Assembly (NCBI GenBank): GCA_036172315.1
Contig: JASFBC010000093.1
Location: 27,108 to 91,107 of the forward strand
Reading direction: 5' to 3'
From: Anaerolineae bacterium
GTDB lineage: Bacteria; Chloroflexota; Anaerolineae; B4-G1; DUEL01
DNA: 64,000 bases
In this document: piece by piece, positions 3,858-62,543 of the stretch
Layout: each line of letters begins with the position of its first letter
Position numbering within the stretch: position 1 is the first letter of the stretch
Translations under genes and position numbers: made by a program
The notes under the pieces: generated by a model
The model's input: only the letters and a program-made list of their open reading frames with translations
What the model was told of the DNA's origin: nothing
Database searches by the model: none

Positions 3858-4223
3858 ATGGTGGAAAAAGATCGCCGGTTGGGACGACTGCGCCGACGCA
3901 AGCATGTGCGCAAGAAGGTGTTCGGCACGCCCGAGCGCCCGCGTCTGAACGTTTTTCGCAGTCTGCGGCATATCTACGCCCAGGTGATTGATGATACAGT
4001 GGGACATACACTGGTCTCCGCCTCTACCCTGGACCCGGAAGTCCGGGAGCAGATTGCAGGATTGAAGAAGAGGGAGCAGGCCCGGGTGGTGGGGAAGGTC
4101 CTGGCGGCCCGTGCCCTGGCCCGGGGGGTCACCAAAGTGGCCTTTGACCGGGCGGGATACAAATACCACGGTCGGGTGAAAGCGCTGGCCGATGCCGCCC
4201 GCGAGGGTGGGTTGGATTTCTAA
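3858..4223 (+). CDS. rplR: 50S ribosomal protein L18
   Basis: Basic N-terminus [19 protein letters not shown] with spc-operon context. Confidence 0.93.
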
Positions 4224-5514: not shown

Positions 5515-6834
5515 ATGATCCAGGCCGTACGTGATGCCCTGAGGCTTCCCGACCTGAGACGGCGGCTGTTCTACACGCTGCTGATTCTGGTTATCTTTCG
5601 CGTAGCCTCTCACGTGCCGGTGCCGGGCATTGACCGGGAGGCTCTGCGCAGCCTGACCGGTGGGGCGGCCCAACTGGTCAACATTCTGGACCTGCTCTCT
5701 GGCGGCGCAGTAGCGGAATACTCGGTGCTGGCAAACGGGGTCTATCCGTACATCAACGCATCCATCATTATCCAGTTGCTGGTTCCGGTCATCCCGGCGC
5801 TGAAACGGCTGGCAGAGGAGGAAGGGGAAGCCGGACGACGGAAACTGAACCAGTGGACGTACTACCTGACCATTCCACTGGGGATGTTGCAGGCCTGGGG
5901 TCAGGCCCAGTTGTTCAACAGCGCGGCCGCGCGCCCGATCCTGCCCAACTTCGGCTTCCATCGGCCGGAGTTCATCCTGCCTACCATCTCGGTCCTGGTG
6001 GCCATGACGGCGGGCACGATGTTTGCCATCTGGCTGGGTGAGTTGATCTCCGAACAGGGCATTGGTAACGGTCTTTCGCTCATCATCTTCGGCGGCATCG
6101 TGGCCCGGACGCCGGCCAACGTGGCGCGGATTTACACTACGGATGGTCTCCTGGGCATTCTCTTTTTCCTGATCATCACCGCGCTGGTGGTCTTCGTTAT
6201 CGTCTATGTCCAGGAGGGAGAGCGGCGCATTCCGGTGCAGTACGGCAAGCGGGTACGGGGCCGGCGGATGTACGGCGGCGGCAGCACCTACATCCCGCTG
6301 CGGGTCAATATGGCCGGGATGATCCCGCTCATCTTTGCCCAGTCTCTGCTCACTCTGCCTGCGGTCATTGCCCAGTTCTTCGCCAATTCGTCCAACGTGA
6401 ACGTGGCGAGGGTGGCAGCGGATATTATGAACTTCTTCAGCGGGCACACAGTGGAGTGGTATACCACTCTCTTCTACGCGGTGCTCTACTTTGCTGCTGT
6501 CGTCGGCTTCACATACTTCTACACCTTCGTTCTGGTAGAGCAGCAGAACTTGCCGGAGAATCTGCAGAAATACGGCGGGTTCATCCCGGGTATCCGTCCC
6601 GGCAAGCAGACGGCAGACTACATTAATGGGATCTACAAGCGCATCACTCTGTTCGGGGCTCTGTTCCTGGGCGGTGTCGCCGTCCTGCCCTTTATTGTTC
6701 AGTTGGTGATGAACACCCGGGTGCTGCTCATCACCTCTGCGGGACTGCTCATCGTTGTCGGCGTCGTGGTGGATACGATGCGGCAACTGGAGGCCCAGTT
6801 GCTGATGCGGCATTATGAGGGATTCATCCGATGA
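5515..6834 (+). CDS. secY: Preprotein translocase subunit SecY
   Basis: A 439-aa polytopic membrane protein with SecY motifs (LRRRLFYTL, GGIVARTP) at the conserved position after rplO. Confidence 0.95.
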   Translation: MIQAVRDALRLPDLRRRLFYTLLILVIFRVASHVPVPGIDREALRSLTGGAAQLVNILDLLSGGAVAEYSVLANGVYPYINASIIIQLLVPVIPALKRLAEEEGEAGRRKLNQWTYYLTIPLGMLQAWGQAQLFNSAAARPILPNFGFHRPEFILPTISVLVAMTAGTMFAIWLGELISEQGIGNGLSLIIFGGIVARTPANVARIYTTDGLLGILFFLIITALVVFVIVYVQEGERRIPVQYGKRVRGRRMYGGGSTYIPLRVNMAGMIPLIFAQSLLTLPAVIAQFFANSSNVNVARVAADIMNFFSGHTVEWYTTLFYAVLYFAAVVGFTYFYTFVLVEQQNLPENLQKYGGFIPGIRPGKQTADYINGIYKRITLFGALFLGGVAVLPFIVQLVMNTRVLLITSAGLLIVVGVVVDTMRQLEAQLLMRHYEGFIR

Positions 6835-6861
6835 ACACCATGCCGATTTCCCACGAAGAAA

Positions 6862-6902
6862 GTAACTATTCAGCCCGATGGAGATCGCCCTCCTGGCGCC
6901 GA
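6862..6902. repeat. Partial copy (left end only) of a MITE-like intergenic repeat
   Basis: GTAACTATTCAGCCCGATGGAGATCGCCCTCCTGGCGCCGA is near-identical to the left ends of the copies at 7743 and 53873. Confidence 0.75.
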
Positions 6903-7011
6903 GATGAACCCTTTGTGGAAGAAGCGGATTGACCGGGAAGCCATCTATGTAGGGGCAAGAACAGGTCTAGAACATTCTGCAACATGTTCTGGAAGTAACA
7001 CGGGTGATCGT

Positions 7012-7707
7012 ATGGGCTGTCGGATTGTCCTTTTGGGTATGCCCGGCGCGGGCAAGGGGACTCAGGCGGAGCAACTGGCTCAGGCGCTGGGAGTCCCCCA
7101 TGTCGCCAGCGGTGACCTGTTTCGGGAACACCTGGATAAGGGGACAGAACTGGGCCGCCAGGCGCGGGCCTATATGGAGCGAGGTGACCTGGTGCCCGAT
7201 GAGGTGACCATCGGCATGGTCGCCGAGCGGATCGCCCGCCCGGATTGCATCGGCGGCTTCATCCTAGATGGCTTCCCGCGCACCGTTGCCCAGGCGGAGG
7301 CGCTGGAGCGCCTCCTGCGAGGAAACGGGACCGCGCTGGATATGGTAGCCTTTATCCGGGTGCGGGAGGAGGTCGCGTTGGCCCGTCTGGCGGGCCGCTG
7401 GACCTGTCGGAATTGTGGGGCAGTCTATCACACCCTGTTTAACCCACCCAGGCAGGCCGGGATGTGCGATGCCTGCGGCGGCGAACTCTACCAGCGCCCC
7501 GATGAGACGGAGGAGGCTCACCGCCGCCGCCTGAAGGTCTATCAGGAACAGACGGCGCCGCTGGTGGACTACTACCGTCAATCTGGCCTGCTGGTGGAGA
7601 TAAACGGCGAGCAGTCCATTGAAGATGTCCAGGCCGACCTGCGGGCAGCCGTGGAGAGCGCCTGCGGCCGACTCGGCGGAGAAAGCCCACAAAGCGCTTC
7701 CCGCTGA
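7012..7707 (+). CDS. adk: Adenylate kinase with zinc-binding lid
   Basis: P-loop GMPGAGKGTQ and lid cysteines CRNCG...CDACGG. The ORF-track start at 6904 adds a non-homologous extension that overlaps the repeat, so ATG 7012 is preferred. Confidence 0.9.
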   Translation: MGCRIVLLGMPGAGKGTQAEQLAQALGVPHVASGDLFREHLDKGTELGRQARAYMERGDLVPDEVTIGMVAERIARPDCIGGFILDGFPRTVAQAEALERLLRGNGTALDMVAFIRVREEVALARLAGRWTCRNCGAVYHTLFNPPRQAGMCDACGGELYQRPDETEEAHRRRLKVYQEQTAPLVDYYRQSGLLVEINGEQSIEDVQADLRAAVESACGRLGGESPQSASR

Positions 7708-7742
7708 GCCGCTACCCAGACCGGTCTACGGGTTTCCTTAAC

Positions 7743-7893
7743 CACTATTCAGCCCGACGAAGACCGCCTTCTATGCGCCGATGGGGGGCAGGGGCAATGG
7801 AGGGGCAACCCCTGCAGTTGCCCTACAAGGACGGCGCAGGCCGTCCTCCGGCTGAAGGCCCGGAGAGGCCGACTTTCCGTCAGCGCTGAGTTT
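7743..7893. repeat. MITE-like intergenic repeat, copy B
   Basis: Shares ACTATTCAGCCCGA...GGACGGCGCAGGCCGTCC...GACTTTCCGTCAGCG blocks with the copy at 53873-54045; internal palindromes are present. Confidence 0.75.
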
Positions 7894-7903
7894 CCTTCTT
7901 CCC

Positions 7904-8665
7904 TTGATCCAACTGAAGTCATCAGGCGAAATTGGAAAAATGCGTCAGGCCGGGCGGATTGTCGCCGAGGTCCTGCTGCGGATGCGGGAATGGGTGAGGC
8001 CCGGCGTCACCACGGCGGAGTTGAACGAGAAGGCAGAGGACCTGATCCGACGCCGGGGCGGCATCCCGTCCTTTAAAGGGTATCCGCCAGGGAGCCCGCA
8101 TCCCTTTCCGGCCGCAATCTGTGCGTCCGTTAACGAGGAACTGGTCCACGGGATTCCTGGCCCCCGGGTGCTGAAAGAAGGGGACATTATCAGTATAGAC
8201 GTCGGGGCCATCTACGACGGTTATCACGGTGATGCGGGCATCACCCTGCCGGTGGGGGAAGTGAGCCCGGAGGCCCGGCGGCTGTTGGAGGTGACGGAGG
8301 AAGCCCTCTACCTCGGGATTGCCCATGCCCGGGCCGGGAACCGTGTCGGCGACATCTCCGCCGCCATTCAGACCTTTGTGGAGTCCCAGGGCTACAACGT
8401 GGTGCGGGAGTACACCGGGCACGGGATCGGTCGGCAGATGCATGAGCCGCCGCAGATTCCCAACCATGGGGAGCCGGGACGGGGGCCGCTATTGTGGTCG
8501 GGGATGACCGTCGCCATAGAGACGATGGTCCTGGCAGGCGACCATCGGGTCCGGACCCTGCCCGACCACTGGACGGTCGTCTCCGTGGATGGCAAACTGA
8601 CGGCCTACTTTGAACACACTGTCCTGATCCGGGACGGAGAGGCGGAGATATTGACGCGGCTGTAG
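7904..8665 (+). CDS. map: Methionine aminopeptidase type I
   Basis: MAP N-terminus ...IKSSGEIGKMRQAGRI and metal-ligand context (DVGA..DGYHGD...HGIG...E). Confidence 0.93.
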   Translation: MIQLKSSGEIGKMRQAGRIVAEVLLRMREWVRPGVTTAELNEKAEDLIRRRGGIPSFKGYPPGSPHPFPAAICASVNEELVHGIPGPRVLKEGDIISIDVGAIYDGYHGDAGITLPVGEVSPEARRLLEVTEEALYLGIAHARAGNRVGDISAAIQTFVESQGYNVVREYTGHGIGRQMHEPPQIPNHGEPGRGPLLWSGMTVAIETMVLAGDHRVRTLPDHWTVVSVDGKLTAYFEHTVLIRDGEAEILTRL

Positions 8666-8753
8666 GTGAAGTTATCCGGGTTTGAGCCGGGGAGCCCTTC
8701 AGGCGGCTATAGCATATGCCGCCGAGGTCGTCAGTGAGTAAGAGGAGGATAGA

Positions 8754-8867
8754 GTGAAAGTTTCACCTTCGGTCAAACGGCGCTGTCCCAAATGCAAAAT
8801 CATCCGTCGTAAAGGGGTGATTCGGGTCATCTGCGAGAACCCGAAGCACAAACAGCGACAGGGCTAA
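8754..8867 (+). CDS. rpmJ: 50S ribosomal protein L36
   Basis: Translates to [37 protein letters not shown] with a GTG start and RBS AGGAGGA 6 nt upstream. It is absent from the ORF track because it is shorter than the track cutoff. No infA lies between map and rpmJ. Confidence 0.92.
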
Positions 8868-8898
8868 TTCACGCTTCACGCATTCTATCGGAGGAGGT

Positions 8899-9288
8899 AT
8901 GGCTCGTATTGCCGGTGTAGACCTGCCCAGAGATAAACGGGTGGAGATCGGCCTGACCTATATCTACGGCATCGGGCGCAGTCTGAGCAATCAGATTCTG
9001 CGCAAGGCCGGCGTGAACCCGAATAAGCGGGTGAAAGACCTCAGCGAGGCCGAGGTGGCCCGTCTGCGCGAGATCATTGATCGGGAGTATAAGGTGGAGG
9101 GCGACCTGCGGCGTGAGGTGCAGATGAATATCAAGCGCCTGATAGAGATCGGGTGCTATCGTGGATTGCGCCATCGGATGAACTTGCCGGTGCGCGGTCA
9201 GCGCACGCGGACCAATGCGCGCACCAAGCGGGGGCCGCGCAAGACCGTTCCCGGTCGCGGCCGCCGCCGGGGCGCCAAGAAGAAGTAA
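8899..9288 (+). CDS. rpsM: 30S ribosomal protein S13
   Basis: N-terminus [26 protein letters not shown]. Confidence 0.95.
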
Positions 9289-9322
9289 TCCGCAAATCTG
9301 CCATCTGTTCACGGAGTTGACT

Positions 9323-9718
9323 ATGTCTCGTGCTCAAAGACGTCGCAGAGTTACCCAGCGGGTGCGCCGCGCGACCCCGCGCGGGGTGGCCCACATTCAC
9401 GCCAGTTTCAACAACACCATCATCACGATCACCGACCCTCAGGGGAATGTCATTAACTGGGCCAGCGCGGGACTGGTGGGCTTTAAGGGCTCCCGTAAGA
9501 GCACGCCCTTCGCGGCCCGCCAGGCCGCCCAGCGCGCGGCCAAAGACGCCCTGGATAACGGGGTGACCGAGGTGGATGTGCTGGTCAAGGGGCCGGGCCC
9601 GGGGCGGGAGGCAGCCATCCGCTCCCTCCAGGCTTCGGGGCTCAAAATCCGCTCCATCACCGATGTGACGCCCATCCCGCACAACGGTTGCCGGCCCCCT
9701 AAGAAGCGCAGAGTGTAA
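9323..9718 (+). CDS. rpsK: 30S ribosomal protein S11
   Basis: S11 motif [18 protein letters not shown]; start ATG 9323 has RBS ACGGAG. The ORF-track 5' extension is not homologous. Confidence 0.93.
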
Positions 9719-9743
9719 TGATGAATTAGAGTAAGGAGTGAGT

Positions 9744-10382
9744 ATGGGCAGATACACAGGCCCGGTTTGTCGGTTGTGTCGCCGCGAAGGACAAAAGTTA
9801 TTTTTGAAAGGCGCGCGCTGCACATCGCCCAAGTGTGCTCTGGAGCGCCGGGATCACCCGCCCGGACAGCACGGGCAGATGGCCCGTTTCCGACGGGGAC
9901 AACCCACGGATTACTTCCGCCAGTTGCGGGAAAAACAGAAAGTTAAGCGGGTCTACGGCATTCTGGAGCGGCAGTTCCGCCGCTACTTCCGGGAGGCGTT
10001 GCGGATGCCCGGCCTGACCGGCGAAAATCTACTCATCCTGCTGGAGCGCCGTCTGGATAACGTAGTCTACCGGCTGGGCTTTGCCGACTCGCGTGCCCAG
10101 GCCCGCCAACTGGTTCAGCATGGCCACTTCACCGTCAACGGCCGACGGGTCACTATCCCGTCCTACCTGGTCTGGCCCGGTGACCGGATCGCGGTGCGGG
10201 AAGGAAGCCGCAGGCGACCATATTTCCAGGAACGCGCGGAGATGCTGGGCGAGATGAGAGTTCCCGATTGGCTCTCTCTGGACGCGGCGGACCTTTCCGC
10301 CCGGGTTCTGGGAATGCCCAGGCGGGAGCATGTGGACATCCCGATCAACGAGCAACTGGTCGTGGAGTACTACTCTCGGTAG
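9744..10382 (+). CDS. rpsD: 30S ribosomal protein S4 (zinc-finger type)
   Basis: N-terminus [16 protein letters not shown]...CTSPKCA (C4). RBS AAGGAG lies 5 nt before ATG 9744. Confidence 0.93.
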
Positions 10383-25770: not shown

Positions 25771-26523
25771 TCAACCTCCTTTCAGGCGGGCCAGTTCGGC
25801 CCGCAACCGCTCCAGTTCCTCCTCCGCCCGGCGGCGGGCCTCCGCCTCCTCCGCCGCCCGCCGCTCCGCCTGACGGCGGGCCCTTTCCGCCTGACGGCGG
25901 GCTTCCTGAGCCTCCAGTGGCGTCAGCAATCGCTCCCCTGTGCGGGGGTCCACCAGCCGCAGGAAACTCCCCTCCACCCGCAACTCCAGCCCCAGCACCT
26001 GGCTCACCAGTGGCTCCTCTTTCACCTGCCGGTACCCCTCCGGCGTCAGCCGGAAGGCTATCAGGGGCGGGCGAAGGTACTCGCCCAGGGGGTCAAAGAG
26101 GAAATACTCCTGCACCCCCAGCAACTCGTAGATGCCTTTCTTCGCCCCCAGGTCCTCGTAGCGGGTCTTTTTGGAGGTCAGTTCAAAGGCCACATCGGGG
26201 CCCCTCCCCTCCTTCCACACCTGGTAGATGCGGCGCTCGCCCTTCGGGACCCCTTTCACGACGAAGACGTCGGGGCACACGACCTGAGAGGGGTCGCCCT
26301 CCACGAAGTAGACGAAGAGGTTGCTCGCCACATAGACGTTGGGGTCGTTCCGGAAGTAGTCCGCCAGGGCCTCCCGGAGGTAGATAAGTTGGCTGATGTG
26401 TGCGTCCGTCTCGCCCATCGGCTTCCCATCCGACTCGGGGTACTCAACGGGGGTGGGGGGGAGATAGACGACCTCCACCCGGGGGATAACTTCAACTTTT
26501 TCCTGAACCGCTACTTCTGCCAT
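25771..26523 (-). CDS. Uma2-family (DUF820) endonuclease with coiled-coil tail
   Basis: PDVAFELTSKKTRYEDLGAKKGIYELLGVQEYFLFDP matches the Uma2 core; C-terminal ARRQAERARRQAERR coiled coil. Confidence 0.8.
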   Translation of the reverse strand: MAEVAVQEKVEVIPRVEVVYLPPTPVEYPESDGKPMGETDAHISQLIYLREALADYFRNDPNVYVASNLFVYFVEGDPSQVVCPDVFVVKGVPKGERRIYQVWKEGRGPDVAFELTSKKTRYEDLGAKKGIYELLGVQEYFLFDPLGEYLRPPLIAFRLTPEGYRQVKEEPLVSQVLGLELRVEGSFLRLVDPRTGERLLTPLEAQEARRQAERARRQAERRAAEEAEARRRAEEELERLRAELARLKGG

Positions 26524-26563
26524 TGCTTGCTCTCCAGAATCTGGCCGGGCGTCCGGCGGCCAG
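26502..26563. repeat. 63-bp direct repeat, copy 1 (Uma2 5' end plus upstream)
   Basis: About 95% identical to 27425-27488. Confidence 0.85.
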
Positions 26564-27410: not shown

Positions 27411-27424
27411 AGGCTCCTTTTTCC

Positions 27425-27488
27425 CCTGAACCGCTACTTCTGCCATGGCTTGCTCTTCCAGAATCTGGCCGGGCGTCCGGCGGCCCAG
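27425..27488. repeat. 63-bp direct repeat, copy 2
   Basis: CCTGAACCGCTACTTCTGCCATGGCTTGCTCTTCCAGAATCTGGCCGGGCGTCCGGCGGCC. Confidence 0.85.
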
Positions 27489-39545: not shown

Positions 39546-39647
39546 CCAGATGAATCTCCGCCTGGACGACAGACCACCGACCCCTGTCGTCTGGGGTCTG
39601 CGGTCTATGGTCTGGGGCAAATCCTGTTTCTGAAAGAGGTCAACGCT

Positions 39648-43022: not shown

Positions 43023-43180
43023 CGGGGCCTCCTGGGTGGACTACGGATGACGGACGACCGACGATGGACGATGGGCGACGCCATTATATGCCGCTGTTCC
43101 GGTCATATCAACACGAGTCCTCCGTGGTCTGTGGTCATTTGACAATCCCCTCCTCCCGTGTTATACTCTCCTGTGCGCGA

Positions 43181-43254
43181 GGGCCGTTAGCTCAGTCAGG
43201 CAGAGCAGGGGCCTTTTAAGCCCTTGGTCGCAGGTTCAAATCCTGCACGGCTCA
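43181..43254 (+). tRNA. tRNA-Lys (anticodon TTT)
   Basis: Cloverleaf GGGCCGT-TA-GCTC..GAGC-A-GGGGC-CTTTTAA-GCCCT-TGGTC-GCAGG-TTCAAAT-CCTGC-ACGGCTC-A. Promoter TTGACA-N17-TATACT lies at 43138-43166; terminator CCCTCCCGCAGGGCGAACGCTGGCGGGAGGGTTTTT at 43267-43302. Confidence 0.85.
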
Positions 43255-52602: not shown

Positions 52603-53850
52603 TCAGGATTCGGGGAGGGGCAACAGGATGTGGACGGTTGTTCCAGGCAGGCGCACCTCATCCCGCCCCTCGCTTTCTATCCAGATTCTCCCTTTGTGGG
52701 CCTCAATGATTCCCCGGGCCAGGCTGAGGCCCAGGCCCAGTCCGCCCCCCTTGAAGGCCGTCTTGCTGGAATGGTGGAGTAAGGTCTCCTCCACCACGTA
52801 GAACCGCTCAAAGATGCGCTCCCGCTCCGCTGGATCAATCCCGATACCGGTATCCTGGACGCTCAGATGGATGGTGTGGTCCACCACCCGTCCGGTGATG
52901 CGGATCGTGCCACCGTCGGGGGTATATTTGACCGCGTTGCTGATCACATGCCAGAGGGCCTGGAAAAGCCGCTGGGCATCTGCCATAATTATCGGCAGAG
53001 CCTCCAGTCCTTCAAACTCAAAGGTCAACTGTCGCTCCGGGCCCAGGTTGCGGATGTTGCGCACCACATTCTGGATGAGGGAATTCAGGGGAACGGGGCC
53101 GATGCTCAGTTCCAGTTTGTTGGCCTCAATGAGGAAGACGTTCAGGATGTCGTCCACCACCTGATTCAGGCGGCGGGTGGCCTGCATGACCTGATGGAGC
53201 AGATGACGGGGACTCCCTTCCTCATCCGGGCCGCCAGGGATGTCGGGGATGGAGAGCAGGATCTGGCTGTAGCCATAGATGGCGGTGAGAGGGGTGCGCA
53301 GTTCGTGGCCGGCCAGGATGATGAAATCGGTTTTCATCTTATCCAGCCGTTGGAGTTCGGCGTGGGCCTTCTCCAGTTCGCGGATTTTCCCTTCCAGCCG
53401 CTCCACCAGGCGGCGGCTGTACTCTACCAGATAGTCCGCTTTCTCCTGAGGGGACTCTATCCGTTCCCGCAAGCCGCCCAGGAACGCCTTCACCTGCTGG
53501 GGGAAACGGTCCACATCTATCGGTTTGGGGATGTATCCATCGCATCCCGCGATGAGCGCCCGCTCCCGGTCCCCGCGCAGGGTGGCAGCGGTCACGGCGA
53601 CGATGGGGACGTCTTTCAGTTCTTCCAGCGCGCGCAGCCGGGTGGTGACCTCATAGCCGTCCAGCCCGCTGATGTTGATGTCCATCAGGATGAGGTCGGG
53701 CCGCAGTTGCCGGGCGGCTTCCAGGGCCGCGATCCCATCGGTGACGATGCGCACTTCAAAGCCTTCGGCCTCCAGCACCCGCTGCACCAGTCGGGCGCTG
53801 GAAGGGTCGTCCTCTACATACAGGATGCAGGCGCGTGCGTTTCGGTGCAT
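52603..53850 (-). CDS. Hybrid response-regulator/histidine kinase (REC-HisKA-HATPase)
   Basis: REC motifs (VEDDP; LILMDINISGLDG; VTAAT), H-box LAGHELRTPLTAIYGY, and G-boxes GGGLGLGLSLARG. Confidence 0.88.
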   Translation of the reverse strand: MHRNARACILYVEDDPSSARLVQRVLEAEGFEVRIVTDGIAALEAARQLRPDLILMDINISGLDGYEVTTRLRALEELKDVPIVAVTAATLRGDRERALIAGCDGYIPKPIDVDRFPQQVKAFLGGLRERIESPQEKADYLVEYSRRLVERLEGKIRELEKAHAELQRLDKMKTDFIILAGHELRTPLTAIYGYSQILLSIPDIPGGPDEEGSPRHLLHQVMQATRRLNQVVDDILNVFLIEANKLELSIGPVPLNSLIQNVVRNIRNLGPERQLTFEFEGLEALPIIMADAQRLFQALWHVISNAVKYTPDGGTIRITGRVVDHTIHLSVQDTGIGIDPAERERIFERFYVVEETLLHHSSKTAFKGGGLGLGLSLARGIIEAHKGRIWIESEGRDEVRLPGTTVHILLPLPES

Positions 53851-53872
53851 GTTCCCCTTCCTCCAAATTTTC

Positions 53873-54045
53873 GTAACTATTCAGCCCGATGGAGATCGCC
53901 CTCTTGGCGCCGATTGGAAATCGGCCTCCCCTGGGCGCTTTCGCGCCGGGCGTCAACCTCCGTTGACGCCCTGGGAGGACGGCGCAGGCCGTCCAGAGGC
54001 CGCAGGCCCAGGGAGGCGGACTTTCCGTCAGCGTTGAATAGTTAC
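53873..54045. repeat. MITE-like intergenic repeat, full-length copy C with terminal inverted repeats
   Basis: GTAACTATTCAGC...GCGTTGAATAGTTAC termini. The interior is rich in palindromes (GTCAACCTCCGTTGAC, GGCGCTTTCGCGCC, GGACGGCGCAGGCCGTCC). Confidence 0.8.
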
Positions 54046-55709
54046 AAATTTTCCATCGCGCCGCTGATTTCGCGGAGCAGTTCCTCGTCGGTGAAGGCGC
54101 CCTTCTGAAGCAGGGCCTGGATGTGGCCGCTGAGCCGGGCCCGCTCATTGGGCGTGAGTTCTTTGGCCGTGACGACAATGACCGGAATATCCCGCAATTC
54201 CTCGTCGGCGTTGAGCACCTCCAGCACCCCGAAGCCGTCCACCTCCGGCATCATCAGGTCCAGCAGGATGAGGTCGGGGCGCTCCTGGCGGATGAGTTCC
54301 AGTCCCTCCCGGCCGTTCTCGGCCTCCAGAATCTGGTAGGGGCCCCGGACCTGGAGGATGCGCCGGAGGAGGCGGCGGGCGCCCGGGTCGTCCTCCAGGA
54401 TGGCCACGCGACGGACGTCCCGACCCAGTGACTCCAGCGACCCCAGCAGTCCCTCCTCCGGGGCCGGCGCGCGGGCAGGCGCCTCCACCGTCTGCACCCA
54501 GTCTTCTCCCAGCAGGTGTTTCTCCACCGGGAAGGTGTGGCCGGAGCAGTTGACGACGATCACCTCGTCCCGCCGGATGACCCCTTTGCTGAGCAGTTGG
54601 AAAAGGCCGGCGAAAGCAATGCCCGCCGCCGGCTCCATGGAGATACCCTCCAGTTTCGCCAGAACATGGATGGCGCGGAAGGCCTTTTCGTCGCTGACCA
54701 TTTCAAAGGCGCCGCCATGCTCCCGGATCACCCGGGCCAGGAAGGTATAAGCCGGGCCGGGGTCACCGGTCGCGACGGTGATAATGCGGGTGCGGGGATT
54801 GAGGACCGGCTCCGCTTTCTCCAGCCCCTTTTTGAAGGAGTGGACCATCGGGGCGCACCCTTCGGCCTGGACGCAGGCCAGGCGGGGCATGCGGTCTATC
54901 AGGCCCATGCGCAACAGTTCCTCAAACCCCTTCCAGACTCCGACCGGCCCCAGCCCGCCGCTGACGGCCTGGATATACCAGTCCGGCGCGCGCCAGGGGG
55001 TGGTGGGGCCGGGGCCCAGGTGCGCGGCCAGTTGTTCGGCGATCTCAAAGGCTACCGTCTTCATGCTCTCCCGCGCGGCGATGGAGCGGATGCCCCGGTC
55101 CAGATAGAGCCCCCGCCGCTTCGCAAATTCCGCCGCCACCTGCTTGGTCTGGTCGTAGGTGCCGGTGACCTTGACGACTTTGGCGCCGTAGATGGCGACC
55201 TCGCGCATCTTCTCCGCCGGGACCAGGCTGGTGAGGAAGGTCCAGATTTTAATGCCCGCCAGGGCGGAGTAGGCGGCGTAGGAGATGGCGACATTGCCGG
55301 TGGAAGCCAGAACCGCCTCAGTGACTCCCAGTTCTTTCATCACGGAAACCGCCAGGGCGGCCTGCCGGTCCTTGAAGGAGCCGGTCGGCCCCTGCCGTTC
55401 GTCCTTGATGTAGAGATGGGAGCATCCCAGCATCATCCCCAGGTTGACGGCCCGCAGGAGAGGGGTGCCTCCCTCGCCCATGCTGAGCCGGTGGGCATCA
55501 TTCCGGAGGGGAAGGAGTTCCCGGTAGCGCCACATCGTCTGGGGACGGCGGGGCATTTCCCGCTGCCAGATACGGGCCACGCTCGGGTAGTCATAGATAA
55601 CGTCCAGCCAGTCCCCATCGCACTGCGGGCAGCGCTCCAGGGGACGGGTGAACGGCTCATGGTAGCCACAGCGAGTGCATTGCAGGTACGGGTACTGGTG
55701 AGTATCCAT
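54042..55709 (-). CDS. Threonine-synthase-like PLP enzyme (N-terminal zinc ribbon) fused to a C-terminal response-regulator receiver domain
   Basis: Zn ribbon CTRCG...CPQCDG. PLP-lysine motif GPTGSFKDRQ. C-terminal ~125 aa is a complete REC (ILEDDP; LILLDLMMPEVDG; VVTAK). The ORF is continuous with no internal start; RBS GGGGAGAGAG lies before ATG 55709. Confidence 0.8.
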   Translation of the reverse strand: MDTHQYPYLQCTRCGYHEPFTRPLERCPQCDGDWLDVIYDYPSVARIWQREMPRRPQTMWRYRELLPLRNDAHRLSMGEGGTPLLRAVNLGMMLGCSHLYIKDERQGPTGSFKDRQAALAVSVMKELGVTEAVLASTGNVAISYAAYSALAGIKIWTFLTSLVPAEKMREVAIYGAKVVKVTGTYDQTKQVAAEFAKRRGLYLDRGIRSIAARESMKTVAFEIAEQLAAHLGPGPTTPWRAPDWYIQAVSGGLGPVGVWKGFEELLRMGLIDRMPRLACVQAEGCAPMVHSFKKGLEKAEPVLNPRTRIITVATGDPGPAYTFLARVIREHGGAFEMVSDEKAFRAIHVLAKLEGISMEPAAGIAFAGLFQLLSKGVIRRDEVIVVNCSGHTFPVEKHLLGEDWVQTVEAPARAPAPEEGLLGSLESLGRDVRRVAILEDDPGARRLLRRILQVRGPYQILEAENGREGLELIRQERPDLILLDLMMPEVDGFGVLEVLNADEELRDIPVIVVTAKELTPNERARLSGHIQALLQKGAFTDEELLREISGAMENL

Positions 55710-55813
55710 CTCTCTCCCCTGGGGGCGGGGCGGATTCTCATTCTGCGAAGCCCCTTCGGGGGTTGGATAGCCCGAAGGGTTTTGCCGCTTGAGCCCGCCG
55801 CTTGAGTGGTTCA

Positions 55814-58800
55814 TTATCCCTCCCCAGACCCTTCGGGCCACCCCCTCCTCTTTTCAGATTGAGGGTCTGGAGAGGGAGGGGAAAGGGGGGTGAGGGAGTC
55901 CGGTTTTCGGACAACTTCCAGGAGCGGCAGCCAGACGGTGCAGCGGGTGCCCTTCCCTACCTCGCTTTCCACCGCAATCCGCCCACCGTGACGGTCCAGC
56001 ATCTCTTTGACAATGGAGAGGCCCAGGCCGGTGCCAGGAATCTGCATCTGGCGCGGCCGCTCCCCCCGGAAGAAGCGGTCAAAAATATAGGGCAGTTCAT
56101 CTTTGGGAATGCCGATGCCGGTATCGGCGACGGTGACCGTTGCCCAGCGATGTCCCTCTCGTTCCCCCTCTCCGGTGCTCACCTCCACCCGTCCGCCTGA
56201 AGGGGTGTGCTGAATGGCGTTGCGGATCAGGTTGTTCAGCACCATGCGGAGCGCGTCGGGGTCGGCACGGGCAACCGGTTCCTCCTCCGCCAGGTGGCAC
56301 TCCAGCACCAGCCCCTGGGCCAGCGCCAGGGGCCGCTGCGCGTCCACCACCTCTGCTACCAGAGCGTTGAGCCCCACCGGGCCGAACTGCATCCGGGTAG
56401 CCCCGGAATCCAGCCGGGAAATTTCCAGCACATCCTCCACCAGGCGGGCCTGCCACTCCACCTCCCGCTCCATAATCTCCAGATATTCGGGGAGCAGTTC
56501 GGGCGTCCTCCGCAGGAGGTGGAGATAGGTCTTGATGGTCGTAAGGGGGGTGCGCAATTCGTGGGAGATATTGGAGATGAACCGGACGCGCAGCCGCTCC
56601 AGCGTCTTGTACTGGGTTACATCATGGAGGACAACGACGACCGCCGTTTCCCCCTCAATTCCTTCAATCGGGGACGCCCGGACTTCCAGGTCCAGCCCCG
56701 GCAATTCCACCACCTCCTCGGGCCGCTCCCGGGCTTTTCGGGCTACCCGCCGAACCGCTTCCTCCAGCCGCTGGGCGTCCTCGGGGGAGAGGTCCCGGGT
56801 CAGCCATCCCTGGACGACCGGGTTGGCCTGGAGAATCTCCCCCTGAGAGTCGGCCAGGATGATGCCGTCGCCGGTGCTGCGCAGGACGGCCTCCAATCGG
56901 GCGTACTGGGCCGCCAGTTGCGCCGTCCGCTCCCGCACCTGCTCCTCCAGCGTCCCGGCATAGCGGCGCAGTTCGGTGTAGAGGTGGGCGTTCTCCAGCG
57001 CGATGGCGACATGGTCGGCGAACGCTCTCAGCCGGGCCGCGTCGGCAGAGGTGAACTGGTGGGGGCGGGTGCCGTCCACGTTCAGGAAGCCCACGGTGAT
57101 CCCCCGGACAACGATCGGCGCGGCCACATAGGAGCGAATCCAATCCAGCCCCTCCAGCCGGACCCAGAGGGGGTCGGCATGGGTATCGGGGATAAGCAGC
57201 GGATCACCGGTCCGGGCCATTCTCTGAAGGGTAGGGATCTCCATCACCGGAAACCCCAGAGAGGCAACCCGTTCTTCTGCTCCGAACTGTTCGTATCCCC
57301 GTCCGCCTGCAATGCGGGCGATGCCGTCTTCTATCAACATTACATTGAAGGCATCGCCAGGCACCACCCGCGCCACCTGCTCCAGAATGTGCTCCAGCAC
57401 CTGGGTCGGGTCCAGGGTGCGGGTGATCACAGCGGCCGCCTCCGCCAGCGCCTGGGCCAGTTCCCGCTGCTCCCGTTCGGCCCGGTAGAGCCGCTCGTTC
57501 TCTATCGCCCTGGCCAGCGCGTCGGCCACCTGCTGGAGGAGAGGAACCTGCCCGTGGCGGAAGTTCCGCTCCCGGGTGCTGACGACGTGGAGGGCGCCGA
57601 TGACCTGCATGCCCACCCGCAGCGGCAGGCTCACATAGGAGCGAAAGCCCGCCTTGTAGAGAGCCTGAATAGCCGCGTACTCCTTCTCGGCGCTCATATC
57701 GGGGCAAAAACGGGGCCGGCCCTCCAGCAGGTCGTCCCAGACCGGGGTGGTGGAGAGAGGGAGGAGGGTGCCTTCCTCCAGGATGGGGAAGGGGGTCTCC
57801 AGGACAGCGATGCGGTAATGGGTCCTATCTTCCAGAAGCGCCACGGCAACCCGGTCGCAGCCGGTGAGGATACACAGGCCATGGACCAGGACGCGGAAGG
57901 CCTGGCGGACCTCCAGGGTGTTCAGCGCGGTGGCGATGAGCGCCAGGATCTCCTCTTCCTGCGCCCGACGGTGCTCCTCCTCATAGAGGCGGGCGTTCTC
58001 CAGCGCTACCGCCACCTGGTCCGCCAGCGCGCGCAGGAACTCCATGTCCACTCCCCGGAACGCGTCCACCTGCGGGCTCTGGAGGTCCAGGTTGCCCAGG
58101 ACCCGGTCGCCCCGCAGGAGTGGGATCACCAGTTCGGAGCGGGTAGTGGGGATCAGCGGGAAATAGTCCGGATCCTGCCGGACGTCGGGGACGTAGCAGG
58201 TCATACGGGTGCGGTAGGCGCGAGAATGGATGCCCTCCGTCAGGCTGAGGGGCTGGGTGAGGGCCCGCTCCCGCTCCTGGGGGGAATAACCGCGCAGGGA
58301 GCGGCGCTCAAAGACCCCCCGCTCCGGGTCGGGCACCAGGACCGAGCCGTGGGTGGCGCCGGTGGCCCGTACCGCCTCTTCGGTCAGCCGGTCCAGGATG
58401 GCCTCCGTATCCAGGGTGGAGTTGACGACCTGGCCGATACGGTAGAGGGCCTCCTGACGCTCCCGGGCGGCCCGCTCCTGTTCATAGAGGCGAGCGTTCT
58501 CTATGACCGCGGCCGCGTCCGCGGCCAGCGTCTGGCAGAGGCGGATTTCGGCCTCGGCGAACGCTCGCTCCTGGCGGCTCTCGCAAAGAGCGACGAAGCC
58601 GATAGCGCGATCGCGCACCACCAGGGGGACAACCAGTTGGGATTTCCAGCCGTACCGCTCCACCTCCGCCCGGTCGCCCGCATTCAGGTAGCCGCCGGCC
58701 TGGAGAACCAGAGGCCGCCGCTCCCGGAGCGCACGAACCACTCTCGGATGGAGGCTCAGGTCAAAGGTCTGGCCTATATCGGTGAGGGCCGCTGCCCGTT

Positions 58801-62452: not shown

Positions 62453-62543
62453 CGTGAAACGTGAAACGTGAAAAGTGAAAAGTGAAACGTGAAAAGTGAA
62501 ACGTGAAAAGTGAAAAGTGAAAAGTGAAACGGGAGACGGGAAA
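62453..62543. repeat. Tandem heptanucleotide repeat (NGTGAAA)x11 plus 2 degenerate units, immediately 5' of the giant kinase start
   Basis: CGTGAAA/AGTGAAA units are perfectly phased from 62453 to 62529, then CGGGAGA and CGGGAAA. They fill the whole dtd-to-kinase spacer; there is no SD before ATG 62443. Confidence 0.9.

Follow-up and report, generated by a model that had tools for sequence, protein, structure and literature searches.

What kind of element stretches three tightly packed gene junctions of the 64-kb window (the whole 64,000-nt stretch of DNA that was analysed) to highly structured spacers of 177-196 bp, and how it came to lie there, is the question raised by the segment at positions 53873-54045. 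[quoted passage not shown] The window contains exactly three instances of the left block ACTATTCAGCCCGA, situated at 6865, 7744 and 53876 on the plus strand (against an average of 0.27 in shuffled sequence), and two of the right block GACTTTCCGTCAGCG, at 7871 and 54019; neither BLASTN of the copies against the window nor nhmmer detected any further matching segment in it. The full-length element, copy C (53873-54045, plus strand, 173 bp), has the predicted termini, with the first letters GTAACTATTCAGC and the last letters GCGTTGAATAGTTAC. It is oriented antisense to both flanking minus-strand genes, which Pfam assigns to a PALP (threonine-synthase-like) plus receiver protein (PALP-REC, 54042-55841) and to a receiver-HisKA-HATPase kinase (REC-HK, 52603-53850). 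Copy B (7740-7889, plus strand) is a diverged element of 150 bp placed in sense orientation between adk (adenylate kinase, 7012-7707) and map (methionine aminopeptidase, 7904-8665), both assigned by Pfam; its left and right blocks are common with C (83% identity over 42 nt and 83% over 70 nt, respectively, E=1e-15), its central hairpin is different, and its termini are degraded. Copy A (6862-6902, plus strand), the left-end fragment reported upstream of adk, comprises 41 nt in sense orientation in the spacer between secY, which ends at 6834, and adk; it is 97.6% identical to C over these 41 nt (E=1e-14) and may extend to 6913. All three copies are intergenic and non-coding, containing no plausible ORF with a start codon or ribosome-binding site, and the GC content of the element (65%) is close to that of the window (64%). 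Copies A and B are old and decayed, while C is intact and probably recent.

The left TIR of copy C begins with GTAACTATTCAGCC and the right one finishes with GTTGAATAGTTAC, so both ends start with GTAAC; the inverted match is perfect over 11 nt (GTAACTATTCA) and then continues imperfectly, with mismatches and three single-base gaps, to about 38-40 nt both in C and in L003, a copy from another genome described below, the TIRs of B being decayed. Directly abutting the TIR ends of C, the 8-mer AAATTTTC is present on either side as a direct repeat, at 53865-53872 on the left and at 54046-54053 on the right, the right one within the last codons of PALP-REC (minus strand GAA AAT TT-). These flanks are identical in 8 of 8 positions, which at fixed offsets is expected by chance with a probability of about 3e-5, and they form a putative target-site duplication which the original prediction had suggested looking for and had not itself reported. 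Perfect 8-bp direct repeats of another sequence, GTTTCCTT, flank copy B at 7732-7739 and 7890-7897 (8/8 identical; chance about 0.013 if offsets of +/-10 nt are allowed on each side). Because of them the bounds of B are better set at 7740-7889 than at the predicted 7743-7893, although its position between adk and map and the shared blocks were described correctly. Such flanks imply that the right terminus of B is 8 nt shorter than that of C; alternatively, GTTTC on this side may represent a decayed GTTAC terminus. The flanks of L003, TACGGAAG and TACGGCCG, match in 6 of 8 positions at the offsets of C (p about 0.007), and around copy A a weak direct repeat of GAAGAAA (6855-6861) and GAAGAAG (6915-6921) gives a weak hint of a duplication surrounding an internally deleted copy. 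The 8-10 nt immediately outside the element ends are mostly A/T-rich (AAATTTTC, GAAAATTGG, CATAAAAT, GAAGAAA), with 20-50% GC for the three window copies, one flank of L003 being an exception.

The architecture of these ends bears on several known classes of palindromic elements. Integron attC sites were rejected since the ends TCGTAAC and GTTACAA violate both core motifs (R'' RYYYAAC and R' GTTRRRY), and the copies lie in a ribosomal operon and in an operon of two-component genes, the window containing no integrase. Elements of the IS200/IS605-type PATE class have no TIR and no target duplication, contain subterminal hairpins and insert 3' of a fixed tetra- or pentanucleotide. Because TIRs and 8-bp duplications are present, such a PATE was rejected, as was a remnant of a TnpB/IscB omega-RNA, for which no omega-RNA or HEARO-type Rfam match was obtained either.

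At copy C the insertion is interwoven with the coding sequence next to it. As was predicted for this gene under the name ThrC-REC, the TAA stop of PALP-REC (54042-54044, minus strand) lies inside the right TIR and is supplied by the terminal G-TAA-C, so that a transposon end can provide the stop codon of a gene. The protein tail ...GAMENL* is collinear with the tails ...GAMENA*, ...GAIANL* and ...GATESL* of relatives; therefore the position of the stop is ancestral, and the element replaced the stop codon with no truncation of the protein. When C is removed together with one AAATTTTC, the predicted ancestral sequence ATGGAAAATTTGGAGGAAGG contains no stop codon, whereas relatives have their stop at exactly that position, so that simple cutting and duplication do not suffice and a further change is required. 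This could be a later TAG>GAG substitution or a small adjacent deletion, and in the case of one post-insertion substitution the ancestral sequence would have been ...GAAAATTTG TAG GA.... The spacers between PALP-REC and REC-HK in relatives are too diverged for the exact pre-insertion sequence at C to be reconstructed from them. One proposal regarding this site, the location of C in the promoter region of REC-HK, gained no support: no promoter-like site was found in the element, and in relatives the two genes are separated by 24-34 bp and are probably co-transcribed.

The orthologous sites were compared with those of relatives. PALP-REC homologues at 91-94% identity are numerous, and in the contigs compared the gene order is unchanged and the spacer varies: from PALP-REC to the kinase it measures 24 bp in L006 (GCA_017880035.1) and 34 bp in L042 (SRR28530382), both element-free, 111 bp in L007 and 163 bp in L004, both occupied by unrelated sequence, and 191 bp in the window, where it contains copy C. 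In the ribosomal operon, the secY-adk spacer is 14-15 bp long in the contigs L036-L041 (Adk 87% identical) versus 177 bp in the window, and adk and map, which abut or overlap by 4 nt in the same contigs, are 196 bp apart in the window. The closest relative, L035 (SRR11582154; Adk 94% identical), has an element-free adk-map spacer of 42 bp, and subtraction of B and one GTTTCCTT from the window leaves a spacer of 38 nt. The segment GGAAGAAGCGG at 6914-6924, which follows copy A, agrees with the ancestral spacer between secY and adk found in relatives (in L036, GGGAGAAGCGG). Since element-free spacers in relatives are short, all three sites are gains in the lineage of the window, as judged from relatives with 87-94% identical flanking proteins. 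The predicted insertions on both sides of adk in the ribosomal superoperon are thereby substantiated, with flanking genes identified by Pfam and junctions element-free in relatives; insertions are thus tolerated inside the spc/alpha ribosomal-protein operon. The 11-residue C-terminal extension of Adk and the separation of adk from map are both present in L035 and for this reason predate copy B.

Several other features of these junctions were recorded. In L035 (1-340) a gene other than secY lies upstream of adk; it encodes a product with a different ending and is followed by an unrelated spacer of 129 bp. Thus the linkage of the spc operon seems to be broken there. A 14-nt segment of the secY-adk spacer, CGGGAAGCCATCTA at 6934-6947 (within its 87-nt part 6925-7011), is the perfect reverse complement of 7265-7278 within the adk sequence coding for the LDGFPR motif; by chance, about 0.1 such pairs would be expected within 400 nt in the window. 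The start codon of map (7904-7906) appears to be TTG with no purine-rich ribosome-binding site upstream (gtttccttcttcccTTG), and the next in-frame ATG is at 7940; in relatives map has an ATG start that overlaps the adk stop or is preceded by GAGAGAAA.

Whether the repeat exists beyond the window was addressed by searches of public collections. Exact-pattern scanning of 185,579 species-representative genomes returned the left-end pattern in only two contigs, both from metagenome-assembled genomes (MAGs) of Chloroflexota. The first, L003 (MAG PO_10, contig JASFBA010000084.1), contains a full copy of 204 bp at 4020-4223, antisense, between cobS-like and cobU-like genes (assigned by reading ORF translations), with arms 95-97% identical to those of C; across copies the element thus measures about 150-205 bp, B being the shortest. 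In the second, L002 (MAG H13_138, GCA_034435875.1), a copy in sense orientation lies 25 bp downstream of an unrelated gene and is cut by the contig end. The contig L007, also from H13_138, opens within a variant copy located upstream of dtd; this variant has the GTAAC start, a different subterminal segment and the central module common with C; the orthologous site of the window contains no element. Two short Logan contigs of the sample SRR24425660, L001 and L008, carry two window proteins exactly and end 28-29 nt into copies A and C. In total four contigs (L001, L002, L007 and L008) terminate inside copies, which is the expected behaviour of an assembler at a repeat, and the element explains the assembly breaks at these loci, as well as gene callers running ORFs through it. 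Six loci in three genomes are known in this way: three copies in the window, at least two in H13_138 and at least one in PO_10. Their orientation relative to transcription is sense for A, B and L002 and antisense for C and L003. In JGI metagenomes the exact left-end pattern had no matches, and the right-end pattern had 26, all of them due to chance, with no similarity past the 19-mer. The exact-pattern scan of viral contigs revealed no real copies, BLASTN against plasmids revealed none, profiles of the left and right ends, run with nhmmer against about 290 kb (window and relatives), added no copies, and six-frame translations of C and B used as a protein query gave 8000 candidates, 0 of which scored. 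The family is real, and it is rare in the public collections searched.

This rarity is among the arguments for regarding the copies as not mobile at all, namely as leftovers (solo ends) of a single larger insertion or IS end, or as a relic of local duplication within this genome. Such an origin would fit the reduction of A to a left end, the decayed ends of B and the result that no parent IS has been found. It is nevertheless extremely improbable in our estimation, given that full-length copies of the same architecture reside at unrelated loci in three genomes, that the L003 arms have remained so close to those of C, that both ends of C and of L003 are intact and bordered by duplications, and that assemblies break inside copies.

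Another possibility concerns RNA rather than DNA. The folding check suggested by the original prediction gave for copy C a minimum of -106.4 kcal/mol with z=-7.8, the opposite strand having z=-6.7 and copy B z=-3.8. Predicted folding of this stability, together with conserved arms and a variable apical region that resemble many RNA families and with the location of A and B within a highly transcribed operon, might be taken to mean that the repeat is a structured non-coding or cis-acting RNA (an mRNA stabiliser or processing site, or an orphan guide-like RNA) which is kept for its fold and was duplicated by recombination. However, the two strands fold almost equally, as expected from an inverted repeat in DNA, the copies occur in both orientations relative to flanking genes, and 8-bp direct repeats surround them. 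RNAalifold with the three full copies, few as these sequences are, returned a covariation term of about zero, double changes being confined to non-homologous centres. Among Rfam 15 families only tRNAs reached the gathering score in the window, with nothing meaningful on the element at E<=10, and promoter-like or terminator-like sites were found in none of the window copies. On this balance we hold the RNA interpretation to be highly unlikely.

The interior of the element was predicted to be rich in palindromes; hairpins are indeed present, but they belong to separate modules that differ between copies. The central module of C (53914-53975, plus strand) consists of the hairpins GCCGATTGGAAATCGGC, GGCGCTTTCGCGCC and GGGCGTCAACCTCCGTTGACGCCC and is common to L002 and L007, and unrelated hairpins take its place in B and L003. 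The centre of B carries GGGGCAACCCCTGCAGTTGCCC, and similar hairpins are located immediately 3' of the PALP-REC stop codon in L004 and L043. In L003 the centre is a hairpin built of CAGACCA-type heptamers, which is 90% identical over 51 nt to a free-standing (CAGACCA)n heptamer-repeat hairpin of the window (39564-39617, minus strand) located in the intergenic region between two NADH dehydrogenase (complex I) genes. Unrelated centres between conserved arms mean that the element is a mosaic, which likely arose as small palindromic repeats, of which the clade has several families, nested in or recombined with one another.

Repeats of other kinds accompany it in the same genomes. In the window (GGACGAC)x6 occupies 43038-43080, about 100 nt upstream of the tRNA at 43181, and a segment of about 60 bp is present twice at 92-96% identity (26497-26556 and 27420-27480, 923 bp apart) close to a gene of the Uma2 family (putative restriction endonuclease) and to the beginning of a glycosyltransferase ORF, where it may indicate starts of paralogous genes. 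The spacer separating dtd from a giant (about 2200 aa) sensor kinase gene contains 13 heptamer units CGTGAAA/AGTGAAA in the window (62453-62543), about six similar units (TTCACGN) in L004 (3335-3380), none in L006 and the unrelated unit CCTGCAT/CTTGCAT in L007 (615-695), so that this locus carries different heptamers in related genomes; the arrays recall the STRR repeats of cyanobacteria. In L006 a 1.5-kb array (8434-9952) lies between the gene for the sensor kinase and that for PALP-REC; it consists of units of about 150-180 bp with REP-like, GTAG-tagged palindromes GTTCGTAGTGAGG...CTGACTACGAAC, a single relative of which is found in L003 (7205-7290) between two genes next to the cobalamin-type genes. 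Four independent assemblies of the P0006 lineage (L043, at 7669-8068, L044, L045 and L046) end 160-400 bp past the PALP-REC stop, the contig ends of L043 and L046 consisting of GC-rich hairpin repeats such as CCCCTCCCCTCTCCCC...GGGGAGAGGG. Taken with L004 and L007, this suggests a hotspot at the 3' junction of PALP-REC, where members of the clade collect different small repeats.

Modular hairpins of this sort bring to mind a mosaic of extragenic palindromes of the REP/BIME type, whose spread would depend on a RAYT (Y1/HUH) transposase or on recombination and not on a DDE transposase. REP/BIME elements are 20-40 bp palindromes which bear a terminal GTAG or CGTC tag and produce no target duplication. 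Hairpin modules exchanged between copies, one of them even free-standing at 39564-39617, true GTAG-tagged palindromes in the related genomes L006 and L003, and the gathering of different hairpin repeats at identical intergenic spots across relatives would all accord with that scheme. The conserved arms, however, have no terminal GTAG or CGTC tag, the GTAG palindrome motif of L006 and L003 is absent from the window, and long TIRs with 8-bp duplications are not produced by HUH-mediated spread of REPs. Accordingly the element itself was rejected as a member of this class, and a REP/BIME-type mosaic appears to us very unlikely.

The best explanation, to which we assign a high probability, is that the repeat is a MITE, a small non-autonomous DNA transposon that inserted at junctions of closely packed genes. 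The family is new, and its kind is ordinary and well known. By definition MITEs are shorter than 500 bp, bear TIRs, are flanked by direct repeats when young, target AT-rich intergenic sites, form stable stem-loops and often occur in truncated form (PMC10969869). The MITE-like character put forward in the original prediction gains support from the 8-bp flanks, the empty orthologous sites, the six loci in three genomes and the occurrence in both orientations. The small number of copies, three in the window and three more in two MAGs, the rarity in the collections searched, the failure of the searches to find a parent IS with matching ends, the ancestral sequence without a stop predicted at C, the shorter right terminus implied for B, and a GC content of 65%, unlike that of many AT-rich MITEs, count against it. 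We infer mobilisation in trans by a DDE transposase. In such a mechanism a transposase encoded elsewhere in the genome would bind the imperfect GTAAC ends of about 40 bp and cut AT-rich spots of intergenic spacers with an 8-bp stagger, insertion leaving an 8-bp target-site duplication; in a genome of 64% GC, such spots are found mostly at gene ends and in ribosome-binding regions.

Regarding the source of this enzyme, none of 34 window ORFs compared matches a transposase family, in agreement with the predicted lack of transposase there, and public scans with end patterns for a cognate IS sharing the ends gave only MITE copies or chance matches. The IS66 family is hallmarked by inverted repeats of 20-30 bp starting with GTAAGCG or GTAACCG and by 8-bp direct repeats (PMC11946415, PMC12888890). 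Because of its GTAA termini and 8-bp duplication the element may be tentatively connected with this family, which as a lead from only two short features would be the most likely transposase source, yet a doubtful one.

A further reading assigns the element a role of its own, as a modular carrier whose conserved 40-bp arms would shuttle interchangeable hairpin cassettes, the heptamer-repeat hairpins that are also free-standing in the genome among them, into operon junctions, where they would act at the RNA level and be retained by selection. If true, the stable structure would serve as a determinant of processing or stability, or would uncouple the translation of adk, map and REC-HK. We rate this as unlikely. 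In a weaker variant of it, the element would be the first documented IS66-derived MITE family in Chloroflexota. Literature search for MITEs of Chloroflexota or derived from IS66 yielded no precedent, and a 2024 review of MITEs mentions neither Chloroflexi nor IS66-derived MITEs.

Among known systems, BOX of Streptococcus pneumoniae and the BIMEs of enterobacteria resemble the element in having conserved outer and variable inner modules, in nesting or combining with other small repeats and in clustering at intergenic hotspots (PMC10969869), but they possess neither long TIRs nor regular 8-bp target duplications and have no sequence similarity with it. Elements of the IS66 family are like it in the GTAA ends (GTAACCG in some of them), in the 8-bp duplication and in inverted repeats of 20-30 bp or longer (PMC11946415, PMC12888890). 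Past GTAA(C), however, the TIR is unrelated to published IS66 ends, since GTAAGCGTCCGG and GTAACCGTCCGG diverge from GTAACTATTCAG of the element after position 5, and no IS66-type transposase or TnpB/TnpC-like gene was found in the window or linked to any copy. The closest likeness is with prokaryotic MITEs such as Correia/CREE of Neisseria, Chunjie of Geobacter, QMITE1/2 of Coxiella and ERIC (PMC10969869), which are likewise shorter than 500 bp and devoid of an ORF, bear TIRs, have direct repeats around intact copies, occupy intergenic AT-rich sites, form very stable predicted stem-loops and are found as full, truncated and decayed copies side by side. From these MITEs the present family differs in being GC-rich, in its unusually long (about 40 bp) and imperfect TIRs, in a centre that is swapped for unrelated hairpin modules, in the handful of copies collected so far, and in its host, an uncultured member of Chloroflexota (the MAG records are labelled Anaerolineae and the closest Adk homologues Thermoflexia). 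It leaves the understanding of MITEs unchanged and makes a small addition to the catalogue of bacterial MITEs, coming from a lineage whose mobile elements are barely described.
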